A DNA stretch of 45,156 nucleotides, filler included, from Catajapyx aquilonaris (Eukaryota), in NCBI GenBank assembly GCA_000934665.2. It is 2 parts of 2 records of this genome, joined end to end, with 100 filler letters (N's around TTAATTAATTAA, not from the genome) between each part and the next. Parts side by side here need not be neighbours in the genome. Positions count along the whole stretch, not along the records: positions 22,609 to 45,156 come from JYFJ02005853.1; 1 more part is not named here. One strand, written 5' to 3'. The notes under the pieces were generated by a model that made no database searches, was not told where the DNA came from, and worked only from the letters and a program-made list of their open reading frames with translations. The position numbers were made by a program, and so were the translations under genes. Of the stretch, positions 38,552 through 42,365 are shown one piece after another. Position 1 is the stretch's first letter. Every line of letters starts with the position of its first letter.

Positions 38552-38625
38552 AGTGAGCAAAATGATGAAACTTGATAGGGACGTATGATTTCTGTGATCA
38601 TATCTATCATGCTGATGGGCTCACT
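38552..38625 (+). ncRNA. Box C/D snoRNA, SNORD74/snR64-like (copy A)
   Basis: Terminal stem AGTGAGC/GCTCACT; C box ATGATGA 38562; D' ATGA 38585; C' GTGATCA 38594; D CTGA 38612-38615, 84 nt upstream of the 3' splice site. Guide GATAGGGACG pairs with conserved 28S UGUCCCUAUC. Confidence 0.8.
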
Positions 38626-38736
38626 TCGAATTGGCTGTCTCTCTTACATTGCCGTTATTGTGGTCATGTTGTTCACAATGGTTTTCCTTAATTCTGCAGA
38701 TAATTCAGCTGATTGTAGAGAAGGCAGAAGCACAAA

Positions 38737-41700
38737 ATGGCAGACAACGATGAACTTCTCGACTACGAGGATGAGGAGGTGACAGAGCCCGCAGTTACTG
38801 ATGGGGCCAATGACACCGTGGCCAAGAAGGAGGTCAAGGGCACATACGTGTCCATCCACAGCTCTGCCTTCAGGGACTTTCTCCTGAAGCCAGAAATCCT
38901 CCGGGCCATTGTTGATTGTGGTTTTGAACATCCATCTGAAGGTATGTTAGTGATATTGCTATTTGACAGATTCCTAGGCTGCTTTTGTATGGGAAATCCC
39001 CTAGTTGATTTAGAACTTGTCAAAGCTGTGGTTTAGAAAATGAAAGGACTGCATATTACACAATTTTCCTTAGCCATAAGCAGGATTCTGACTCCATGAC
39101 AGTTGATAATAATGATTCTGAGTTTTTGACCCAAATCAATTTTACTGGCAGTGATTGAATTTCAGGGGGTAATCTCTGTTACGCACATGTGCCCACCACT
39201 GATTATTTTAGCCAACCAGGCTCTAGAGTATAAGTTCCGCCTGGCTTGCTATTTAAGTGCAGATTTATGTAGAAGGGAAAATAATTTTTAATCTTGATAG
39301 ATATTAATAAGAGCCATGTCATGATTGTTTCAGTACAACATGAGTGCATTCCTCAAGCTGTCCTAAGCATGGACATCTTGTGCCAGGCCAAGTCAGGCAT
39401 GGGCAAAACAGCTGTATTTGTGCTAGCCACTCTACAGCAACTTGACGCAGTTGATGGGCAGGTGTCCGTGTTGGTGATGTGTCACACTCGGGAGCTGGCC
39501 TTCCAGATCAGCAAGGAATATGAGCGTTTCTCCAAGTACATGCCTAACATCAAGGTATGCCATTTAGAAAGGGGGCTTTGGTTTTATCATCAAGAGCAAC
39601 TTGACTACTTCCCATTTTTTTCTGTGTCAGGTGGGGGTATTCTTTGGAGGCCTTCCGATCCAGAAGGACGAGCAGGTGTTGAAGACAAACTGCCCTCACA
39701 TTGTGGTGGGCACTCCTGGGCGCATTCTGGCACTGGTGCGATCCAAGAAGCTGGTCCTGAGGTACCTGAAGCACTTCATTCTCGACGAGTGCGACAAGAT
39801 GTTGGAGCAGCTTGGTTAGTGTTTACTTTGTTTCTTGAGCATAGGGAAATATTCATTTGAAGAATGCATAATTTATTTACATGATTAACATTTCACTGTT
39901 TCCTCATAATCAAAAATGTCAGGGAAATGATTACAATGACACTGTTACTTGGCAGCAAGTACGATGTTGAATGTACCATTTAAGTGGAGGCCAGTGAAAA
40001 GTTAGAGCAAATGATGATAACTGATAGGGACGTATGACACAACATGATCATAATAAATCGCTCTGATTGCTCTAATTCCATTCTAACTACATCTAGTTGC
40101 TTTTAACGAGGCATGTACCTAACGGACACTGTCTTCTCAGATATGCGCCGTGATGTTCAAGAGATCTTTCGCAACACCCCACATGAGAAGCAAGTGATGA
40201 TGTTCAGCGCCACCTTGAGCAAGGAGATCCGTCCCGTCTGCAAGAAGTTCATGCAAGATGTAATTGTCTCAACTGGGTGATCGTCCTCCCACAAAACATC
40301 TGCCTTGCCTTACCTGAGTTTTCCAACACTATCCAAACACACAACACGCATAGTTCAAAAATGTCACGAGAGCTGCACCAGAATTAGGCAGTCATGTTTT
40401 CTATCTGAGTATGTTTGATGGGGTTCATTGGCGCTGCAACCATATTGAAGGTTTGGGGGTTGGGTGGTTCTTTAACTCTGGAAGAGCAGAAGAGAGAAGA
40501 GAAGAGAGAAGAACTCAAGAAAAGAAGAGCTCAAGACTTGTGGGTTGGGAATAATTGCTTTGAGCAGTACTGCAGCGTCCAGTTAGTCTTGGGTGGGGGG
40601 TGACACAGAAGGGCCAAATTTGTTTCCAATCCTGAGCCCATCCCAGATTTCATCCCACCACATACCTCCTTTTAAAAAAAATAATGGTGATACTGAGCAA
40701 CGGCAGTGAGGGAAAAGGAGAGGAGATGCCCGTCTTTGTTCCTGCCTCCCACATTCTTCTCCGCACAATTGCGAGATCACTACCACATCCCCATTTTCTG
40801 GCGGAGATGGGGAAGAGTTTCACGGGCCCAGGGGCACAATTCTTCCTACCATGTCTCCTTCCATGGGAACTGCAAGTAATGGTAACTGGTAAACTAGAGT
40901 GCACCCAGAATAATCCGTGAGGAGAAGAATATTTGAATTGATATAATATGACAGCTCAGTACTGGCAGCTTTGTCAAAAATTTTAGGGGTACATGAAGTA
41001 ACAGGTGATCCTGAAACAAGTGTCATGCCAAGTACTTGATTGTGTTGATTCATTTGATGCAAATTCACAGAGAATGCCTTGGAGGTATTTGACATTTTCA
41101 TTTTTTGTTATGTTATCACCTTAATAGAATTATCTTATGCTTCCAGTTTAATATGCATAGGTGCATTTAGTTGATGACTGCTTGATGACAGCACTTGTTT
41201 CAGGATTGGAGTTGAATTCCCTTGCTCATGGGCAGAGGAGGAAACTGGATTCACTTCTGTCCACTCACCCTCCACATGCATTGTTTCTTCCTCCCTCAGC
41301 CGATGGAAGTATACGTGGATGATGAGGCCAAGCTGACCCTCCATGGCTTGCAGCAGCATTATGTCAAGCTGAAGGAAAATGAGAAGAACAAGAAGCTTTT
41401 TGAGCTTCTTGACGCCCTTGAGTTCAACCAGGTAAATGATGTGTTGGATCGGCAAAGGTGTGACCAGTGGTGTATGCCCAACTGTCGTCTTACCACTTGA
41501 GGAATTTGTTTTTGCAGCACATCCTATGCTAATTTTCTTGTGTCCAGGTGGTGATTTTTGTGAAGTCAGTCCAACGTTGCATGGCTCTGGCGCAGCTGCT
41601 GGTGGAGCAGAACTTCCCTGCCATTGCCATCCACCGCAGCATGACTCAGGAGGAGCGTCTCTCTCGCTACCAGAGCTTCAAAGACTTTCAGAAGCGCATC

Positions 41701-42365
41701 CTGGTGGCCACCAACCTTTTTGGCAGGGGGATGGACATTGAGCGCGTCAACATTGTCTTCAACTATGACATGCCTGAGGATACCGACACGTACCTGCACA
41801 GGGTAGCCAGAGCTGGGCGATTTGGAACTAAGGTTTGTCAAGGTTTTGTTCAAGTGAATTTTAATTGTTGTTGCATGCAGCTAAGGATGACATGAGATAA
41901 AAATCTGATACCTTTGATTACAAAGAACTCTCTCTCCCTGAGGCTGCCTTGTGTATCTTGAAGACACAAAAACGACAAGCTTATACCAGGTGCATTTAAT
42001 TAATATGGAATTTTCCTTTAGGGTCTGGCCATCACCTTTGTCAGTGATGAAGGTGATGCAAAAATCCTGAACGATGTGCAGGACCGGTTTGACGTGAACA
42101 TCACTGAGCTGCCAGATGAGATCGACTTGTCCTCCTACAGTAAGTGAAAATCCTAGATGATTTGAAGCAATTTTGGAAGGGACTAGGAAGAGGGACAGTC
42201 CAGATGATGAGCTTGTTACACAGCTGATTGATATCATGACGATATACCCACTCCTTGAACTCTCTCTCTGAAGTGACTGTCGTATGCAATTTGTCTCTCC
42301 TACATAGTGTACAGTGCAAATGATGCTAACCATTTGGTTTTGCCTTTTCAGTTGAGGGGCGTTAA
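38737..42365 (+). CDS. DDX39: Spliceosome / mRNA-export DECD-box RNA helicase UAP56 (DDX39A/B, Hel25E orthologue), 425 aa
   Basis: Exons 38737-38941, 39334-39554, 39631-39814, 40141-40259, 41300-41431, 41548-41832, 42022-42139, 42352-42365 total 1278 nt in frame. Motifs: [75 protein letters not shown]-terminal YIEGR*. Confidence 0.98.
40002..40075 (+). ncRNA. Box C/D snoRNA, SNORD74/snR64-like (copy B)
   Basis: 9-bp terminal stem TTAGAGCAA/TTGCTCTAA; C box ATGATGA 40011; same TGATAGGGACGT-ATGA guide and D' as copy A; C' ATGATCA; D CTGA 40063-40066, 74 nt upstream of the 3' splice site. Confidence 0.85.
41877..41947 (+). ncRNA. Box C/D snoRNA, SNORD26-like guide
   Basis: Stem GCAGCT/GGCTGC; C box AGGATGA 41884; D' CTGA 41905; C' TTGATTA 41914; D CTGA 41938-41941, 80 nt upstream of the 3' splice site. 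Guide GAACTCTCTCT pairs with 28S AGAGAGAGUUC. Confidence 0.72.
42194..42281 (+). ncRNA. Box C/D snoRNA, SNORD81-like guide
   Basis: Stem GACAGTC/GACTGTC; C box ATGATGA 42204; D' CTGA 42224; C' ATGACGA 42236; D CTGA 42268-42271, 80 nt upstream of the 3' splice site. 13-nt guide TTGAACTCTCTCT pairs with 28S AGAGAGAGUUCAA. Confidence 0.85.

Follow-up and report, generated by a model that had tools for sequence, protein, structure and literature searches.

We analyzed a 45,156-nucleotide stretch of the genome of Catajapyx aquilonaris (GenBank assembly GCA_000934665.2; hereafter the window), which joins two parts of this genome through 100 filler letters, positions 22,609 to 45,156 coming from JYFJ02005853.1. 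Its plus strand carries the RNA-export helicase gene UAP56/DDX39, whose open reading frame (ORF) of 425 amino acids (aa) is joined from eight exons across GT-AG introns. Exon 7 matches the Pfam domain Helicase_C, and the first coding exon shares 76-87% identity with arthropod UAP56 proteins among the at least 120 matches listed. A candidate donor at 36390, the single donor-like site, would open intron 1. Four of the eight introns of the gene (1, 4, 7, and 8) each hold one unit with the C/D'/C'/D layout of snoRNAs (small nucleolar RNAs) of the box C/D class, here named sno1 to sno4, and it is very probable, judging from the sequence, that all four are intron-encoded box C/D snoRNA genes with predicted guide functions.

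The internal D'/C' pair and a terminal stem are present in every unit, the stems measuring 8, 11, 6, and 7 base pairs (bp) from sno1 to sno4 (Table 1). Boxes C (RUGAUGA) and D (CUGA) are canonical in sno1, sno2, and sno4, and sno3 deviates once, in box C. Because the C-to-D lengths are only 54, 56, 58, and 68 nucleotides (nt), the mature RNAs would measure about 60-77 nt rather than 70-90 nt. Intronic C/D snoRNAs lie about 60-100 nt from the acceptor, and in the UAP56 gene the D boxes stand 84, 74, 80, and 80 nt upstream of it, one unit per intron and inside that range. The initial annotation had given these same four distances, and its description of four units with terminal stems is borne out by this anatomy and by the shuffle control given below. 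Moreover, sno1 and sno2 are identical over 16 nt comprising the D' guide and the D' box, and over 43 of 58 columns overall. Folding energy is weak in all four (z = -1.9, -1.5, -2.1, and -0.2).

Table 1. Features of the UAP56/DDX39 locus, in positions of the window.
Feature	Position	Strand	Description
sno1	38551..38626	+	box C/D snoRNA, intron 1 (5' untranslated region)
sno1 elements	stem 38551-38558/38619-38626; C 38562-38568; D' guide 38574-38584; D' 38585-38588; C' 38594-38600; D 38612-38615	+	
sno2	40000..40077	+	sno1 paralogue, intron 4
sno2 elements	stem 40000-40010/40067-40077; C 40011-40017; D' guide 40023-40033; D' 40034-40037; C' 40044-40050; D 40063-40066	+	
sno3	41877..41947	+	box C/D snoRNA, intron 7
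sno3 elements	variant C 41884-41890; decayed D' guide 41891-41904; D' 41905-41908; C' 41914-41920; D guide 41925-41937; D 41938-41941	+	
sno4	42194..42281	+	box C/D snoRNA, intron 8
sno4 elements	C 42204-42210; D' guide 42213-42222; D' 42224-42227; C' 42236-42242; D guide 42254-42267; D 42268-42271	+	
UAP56/DDX39 host gene	38700..42365	+	ORF, exon joins
UAP56 exons	38700-38941; 39334-39554; 39631-39814; 40141-40259; 41300-41431; 41548-41832; 42022-42139; last exon from 42352	+	ATG at 38737; stop 42363-42365
Candidate bidirectional promoter	35500..36500		CpG-rich, between UAP56 and the upstream UPF0184 gene

A unit rule (C box R[T/G]GATGA, internal D'/C' pair, CTGA, and a stem of at least 5 bp), which was fixed after the units had been seen, was positive in four of the eight real introns and found no unit in introns 2, 3, 5, and 6, in the first 36 kilobases (kb) of the window on the plus strand, or on the entire minus strand. 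The eight introns were also put through 2000 dinucleotide shuffles, of which eight contained one unit anywhere and none contained two; a single shuffle had its unit 60-100 nt from an acceptor. Chance clustering of short motifs in AT-rich introns, in favor of which the late fixing of the rule and the lack of a gathering-level Rfam match may be cited, is effectively refuted by these shuffles and by independent matches to a profile built from springtail sequences (see below).

Below the Rfam gathering scores, each unit is nearest to a family of 28S ribosomal RNA (rRNA) guides: sno1 to snoMe28S-Cm2645 (E = 0.005; 29.9 bits vs. 48), sno2 to SNORD74 (E = 0.07; 23.7 vs. 41 bits), the 3' half of sno3 to SNORD26 (E = 0.85; 17 vs. 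44 bits), and the 3' half of sno4 to SNORD81 (E = 0.54; in a 491-nt search E = 0.038, 24.2 vs. 50 bits). The D' guides of sno1 and sno2 align to the consensus of both RF00530 and RF00284 in the same register for the Cm3841 site, and these two RNAs are probably homologues that work like Drosophila snoRNA:Me28S-C2645a-c (CD31a-c; RF00530) and vertebrate SNORD74 (RF00284) of clan CL00069, with which they share the D' guide and its register for 28S Cm3841/Cm2716. The fly RNAs also occur as several cis copies in one host. In contrast to these relatives, sno1 and sno2 reside in UAP56 rather than Uhg3 or gas5, have ATGA as box D', score below gathering, and are without a D guide, whereas the fly copies have a predicted guide for Am2724 and springtail copies a guide for Am398 before box D.

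The guide sequence and register of vertebrate SNORD26 (RF00087; 28S Am398/389) recur in sno3 and in the springtail double guide described below, but the guide of sno3 precedes box D, that of SNORD26 precedes box D', and the hosts differ; Rfam pairs the 3' half of sno3 with the 5' half of SNORD26. Similarly, sno4 shares guide and register with vertebrate SNORD81 (RF00136; 28S Am400/391), but places the guide before D instead of D', has an extra D' guide directed at the GTPase centre, and is hosted by UAP56. Since all units fall below the Rfam thresholds and the guides of sno3 and sno4 are also misplaced, they are best described as variants of these families rather than filed members.

The fibrillarin ribonucleoprotein (RNP), with 15.5K and Nop56/58, places its methyl group on the ribose of the rRNA nucleotide that pairs with the fifth base ahead of box D or D'. 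Targets were read, in human numbering, on proxy ribosomal DNA (rDNA), for which animal-type rDNA contigs in bacterial genome assemblies (18 of the 20 loci L001-L020) were used; L003 and L103 are eukaryotic large-subunit (LSU) rRNA by Rfam, and L009 and L010 were dropped as chance bacterial matches. The presence of such contigs indicates that the bacterial assemblies are contaminated. Looking for the 3' half of arthropod 28S, we obtained nothing for the 5' motif and one divergent eukaryotic LSU for the 3' motif in viral contigs, chance matches only with patterns in 15 bacterial assemblies holding rDNA contaminants, and bacterial rRNA only in plasmids.

On the basis of the Rfam alignment and the register of zebrafish SNORD74, sno1 and sno2 are predicted to guide methylation of 28S Cm3841 (fly Cm2645/2716). 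The D guide of sno3 forms 11 bp with proxy 28S, covering positions 3-13 but mismatched at position 2 (0 of 100 shuffles equal), and points at the A targeted by zebrafish SNORD26 (LSU 389/398), so that Am398 is its predicted site; a position-2 mismatch is also found in eight human guide-target pairs in the available part of PMC5027482. The D guide of sno4 pairs over 14 nt and points two bases past the sno3 target, at 391/400, for which Am400, the SNORD81 site, is predicted. The duplex registers of zebrafish SNORD26, SNORD81, and SNORD74 (PMC7668251, available part) agree with these assignments and are independent of the proxy loci. The part of the initial annotation that presented the units as 28S methylation guides is supported, in that sub-threshold Rfam matches, registers, and, for sno3 and sno4, proxy duplexes make them look like guides for these sites. 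In Table S4 of PMC11014333 (rows 77-78), which covers six species, Am398 and Am400 are entered for human and Xenopus only, and not for fly, yeast, Arabidopsis, or Dictyostelium.

The D' guide of sno4 forms 10 Watson-Crick pairs (positions 2-11) with a stretch found in 6 of the 18 rDNA loci, counted regardless of their length. This result was equaled by 4 of 100 shuffles and is modest in view of the eight guides compared with shuffles. The base pointed at is a G in the GTPase centre (RF02543 position 1282), the methylation of which sno4 may possibly guide as well. Arabidopsis Am1263 and Um1278 lie 15 nt apart, a spacing by which this G would correspond to yeast G1268, next to the plant site Um1278 on its 3' side, and to human 2007, in the L11-binding loop. 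Both plant positions are methylated according to rows 105-106 of Table S4 of PMC11014333, and rows 37-111 of the same table enter no ribose-methylated nucleotide (Nm) at the G itself. On the proxy set, no target scored above shuffles for the D guide of sno1 (89 of 100 equal), the D guide of sno2 (10 of 100), or the D' guide of sno3 (15 of 100), and a pairing of the sno2 D guide with 18S was not kept.

A metagenome scan with exon 7 of the window gene provided a comparison with other arthropods; among the best 80 of 390 confirmed loci, six were genomic (L030, L033, L051, L067, L074, and L087). Four of them (L030, L033, L074, and L087) cluster with the springtails Folsomia, Orchesella, and Allacma (support 100/99), and L030 matches Folsomia candida at 100% identity over 134 aa; the other two belong to other arthropods. 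The window protein is placed apart from the springtails, within an open group that also includes Daphnia, a millipede, and winged insects, but not within the winged-insect group, which is itself weakly supported. Intron 7 of L030, L033, and L087, three of the four springtail loci, contains a double-guide RNA with the Cm3841 guide before D' and the Am398 guide before D, and L033, whose UAP56 gene shares all seven coding introns with that of the window, carries an extra copy in intron 6. Both guides are invariant over the four copies, with differing spacers and flanks, and the D guide forms 13 bp against 11 bp in sno3. The D boxes lie 75, 84, and 93 nt before the acceptor of intron 7, and 146 nt before that of intron 6 in the additional copy. 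Counting the window, the host link is thus common to two separate arthropod lineages; outside the window, it was seen in three of four springtail loci and in neither of the two other arthropod loci.

Other snoRNA-like sequences were also observed in these genes. U14 (SNORD14)-like RNAs occur in introns 2, 4, and 6 of springtail UAP56 (L033:3249-3327, L033:4022-4097, and L087:416-495), with E values of 2e-4, 2e-3, and 0.11, below the Rfam gathering score, and lengths of only about 80 nt. A guide-pattern search found no U14 in the window, and therefore UAP56 appears to host different snoRNAs in different introns across species. The UAP56 gene of another arthropod has an H/ACA-like candidate in its intron 6 (L067:2392-2506; ceN100 E = 0.18; SNORA3 E = 4.1).

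The kinship of the window units with the double guide was assessed using a profile (R1) built from the four springtail copies only, with no window sequence. Among its 49 matches over the 45 kb of the window, the top three were sno1 (E = 1.4e-6), sno2 (E = 4e-6), and sno3 (E = 6.5e-4), followed by a next-best match at E = 0.034. Membership of sno4 in this family was rejected, as it matched by its guide alone (E = 0.54). The two halves of the double guide are retained in a complementary manner: sno1 and sno2 keep the D' guide (Cm3841) and are without the D guide, and sno3 keeps the D guide (Am398), its D' guide being scrambled apart from a remnant of 5 nt. Moreover, sno3 occupies intron 7, orthologous to the intron of the springtail RNA, and shares a C' variant with three of the four springtail copies. 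The C-to-D distances of sno1 to sno3 are 9-13 nt shorter than the 67 nt of the double guide, and the gaps of sno1 fall in its dead half. Because springtails host a relative of sno1 to sno3 in the same intron 7, the UAP56 host link predates this lineage, contrary to the initial proposal of a host switch made by the lineage itself. The initial annotation also treated the four guides as independent; three of them appear to derive from a single double-guide family, and sno4 carries a second guide.

The best explanation overall, to which we assign a probability of roughly 0.7, is that the four units are working guides and that an intron-7 double guide was split by duplication and complementary guide loss; the origin of sno1 to sno3 by such a split is, taken separately, probable on the sequence comparisons. 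According to this explanation, an ancestral double guide (Cm3841 before D', Am398 before D) would have been located in intron 7 before springtails and this lineage diverged, and would have been copied in cis to introns 1 and 4, where the copies kept the D' guide and dropped the D guide; the intron-7 resident, sno3, would have kept the D guide and dropped the D' guide, and sno4 would be a separate SNORD81-like gene. Splicing of the UAP56 pre-mRNA would release introns to be trimmed to the C/D core protected at the K-turn, and the resulting RNPs (15.5K, Nop56/58, fibrillarin) would methylate 28S at the fifth paired base, with sno1 and sno2 guiding Cm3841, sno3 Am398, and sno4 Am400 and possibly the GTPase-centre G. 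In the available part of PMC8178906, C/D copies arise mostly in cis inside one host and cis-duplicated snoRNAs lie in neighboring introns, as do the copies in UAP56. Splitting of double guides, or reorganization of single guides into double ones, has been reported in fungi (PMC5824354, available part), where clan CD_5 has guides redistributed between double- and single-guide RNAs as proposed here; the UAP56 case differs in involving animal introns and a living double-guide relative in the orthologous intron.

Several results weigh against this explanation. No Rfam match in the 45 kb window reached the gathering score; the scan suggested in the initial annotation yielded sub-threshold families only, and standard annotation misses all four genes. 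The target predictions stem from rDNA proxies, and there is some circularity in the D-guide matches of sno3 and sno4, as the sno4 guide served to retrieve the 5' 28S loci. The only 3' LSU proxy for sno1 and sno2 was L103, from a divergent AT-rich eukaryote, with one mismatch; in their best proxy duplex they paired with 18S, without surpassing shuffles (79 and 69 of 100 equal), as was also true of the springtail D' guides (best duplex to 18S, 37-57 of 100 shuffles equal). Box C of sno3 (AGGATGA) is non-canonical, not RTGATGA. The comparison of orthologous introns, also suggested at the outset, revealed the related double guide in three of four springtail loci, but none in springtail L074 or in the arthropod loci L051 (intron 7 partial) and L067. 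Outside boxes and guides, the likeness of sno3 to the double guide has p = 0.0045 with the C'-adjacent bases and 0.08 without the whole C' box (sno1 p = 0.06; sno2 0.54; sno4 0.18), and the D' remnant of sno3 alone has p = 0.22-0.52. Finally, as two lineages are compared, the direction of the split cannot be rooted.

In the reverse history, UAP56 would originally have held the same functional snoRNAs as single guides, and the springtail double guide would have arisen when recombination between neighbors joined the 5' half of one, for Cm3841, to the 3' half of another, for Am398. Such a fusion accords with the separate snoRNAs that carry the Cm3841 and Am398 guides in vertebrates, with the different D partner (Am2724) of the fly Cm2645 RNA, and with the lack of significance of the sno3 5' remnant on its own, and single-to-double reorganization is one of the two scenarios in the available part of PMC5824354. 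We nonetheless regard it as unlikely, since sno3 aligns with R1 end to end (model positions 13-77 of 85), 5' half included, and since sno1 to sno3 are all shorter than the double guide, as expected of decay. Decay might have gone further in sno3, making it a degenerating copy, with Am398 either absent or guided from elsewhere, as in Drosophila with the site unmethylated. Its variant box C, position-2 mismatch, and dead D' guide could be read in this way, together with the 11 bp against 13 in springtails, the lowest Rfam scores of the four, and the absence of a fly entry for Am398 in row 77 of Table S4 of PMC11014333. This possibility appears quite unlikely in view of the perfect pairing at positions 3-13 and the intact stem, D box, and spacing, and the Rfam consensus of SNORD26 has the same G ahead of GAUGA in box C.

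A retargeting or doubling of sno1 and sno2 to 18S could be read from the A-to-G change at position 2 of their D' guide, through which they pair with a conserved 3' 18S stretch beside the SNORD82 site. The pairing is perfect at positions 1-8 plus a G-U and is the best duplex on the proxy set; the position-2 G occurs in both paralogues and in none of the four springtail copies, and a weak SNORD82 match (E = 7) was recorded. As noted, the duplex score does not exceed that of shuffles; besides, positions 9-11 are those of the 28S family, where the position-2 G still pairs with U, and no Nm is entered at that 18S C for the six species in the available tables of PMC11014333, all of which makes retargeting very improbable. 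With the split of the intron-7 double guide thus preferred, a wider history can be proposed tentatively, although we consider it rather doubtful as a whole: the double guide would have been present in UAP56 intron 7 before springtails and been resolved here by complementary loss, Am398 and Am400 would be ancestral to bilaterians and lost in the fly, C/D halves would act as exchangeable modules, the guides for these two sites having changed places so that they lie in the D' half in vertebrates and in the D half in arthropods, and sno4 would add methylation of the GTPase-centre G.

With regard to host genes, human SNORD74 and SNORD81 reside in GAS5 and SNORD26 in SNHG1. Zebrafish SNORD81 is found in syncrip and SNORD74 in gas5 (PMC7668251, available part), fly Cm2645a-c in Uhg3 (PMC11014333, Table S6), and host switching or mobility of snoRNAs among broadly expressed hosts has long been described (PMC3511168, available part). 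The human gene DDX39B is an orthologous helicase gene with intronic C/D snoRNAs, and, as the initial annotation had correctly pointed out, these are other ones, SNORD84 and SNORD117 (PMC4696412, available part), which are entered there as orphans; neither Rfam family matched the window units at E<=10. Fly Hel25E was considered as host of the U6-47 guide and ruled out, the host being Ddx56 in the available part of PMC11014333, whose available supplement has no occurrence of Hel25E, DDX39, or helicase. Term searches of the available text of PMC13736004, PMC6984369, and PMC13228274 returned no mention of the gene or the snoRNA families. The literature covered described neither snoRNAs in the UAP56/Hel25E introns of arthropods nor a double guide for Cm3841 and Am398, nor did it describe counterparts of SNORD26 and SNORD81 in invertebrates; subscription papers, genome annotations, and further supplements may contain such a description.

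The surroundings of the host gene provided additional observations. A UPF0184 gene (35150-35800, minus strand) lies head to head with UAP56 across the CpG-rich stretch of Table 1, which is likely a bidirectional promoter common to both, and the same arrangement over a CpG-rich stretch is seen in springtail L033 (1325-1840, minus strand), the two UPF0184 proteins sharing 47% identity over 53 aa (E = 9e-14). An inosine-uridine nucleoside hydrolase gene (42570-43900, minus strand) has its 3' end near or overlapping the UAP56 3' untranslated region, and exons resembling the C-terminal part of a DNMT1-type DNA methyltransferase, as judged by eye, are found at 30450-34810 (plus strand). Intron 1 includes an element of about 400 nt (37888-38296) with internal hairpins and apparent inverted ends by eye (tacagggtgattcc at about 37885, its complement near 38287), possibly a miniature inverted-repeat transposable element, for which Rfam gave chance microRNA-like matches only.

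Of the introns in the UAP56 coding region, intron 5 (40260-41299), which separates FMQD from PMEV, is the longest in the window, L033, and L067; it was unspliced in 18 of the 77 loci in which the site was found (5 genomic, 13 transcript-like). We take it to occupy the same position as intron 6 of human DDX39B. A retained intron 6 with a decoy exon is described for the human gene in the available part of PMC6097662, which suggests that control by intron retention is conserved at this site; no conservation of the intron sequence was seen across nine loci.

Altogether, sno1 to sno4 are real genes of a well-known class, and the mechanism by which snoRNAs act is unchanged by them. With respect to the initial annotation, the lineage-specific host switch gives way to a host link of greater age and, probably, to the splitting of a double guide. 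Drosophila is a poor stand-in for arthropods at these guides. If the proposed history is true, the link between this snoRNA and its host persisted across arthropod classes while copies shifted between introns, two seemingly vertebrate rRNA methylations (Am398 and Am400) would date to the bilaterian ancestor, and one new methylated site would be predicted in the ribosomal GTPase centre. The UAP56 locus would then offer a testable animal case of non-coding RNA subfunctionalization, with the intact double guide still alive in springtails.

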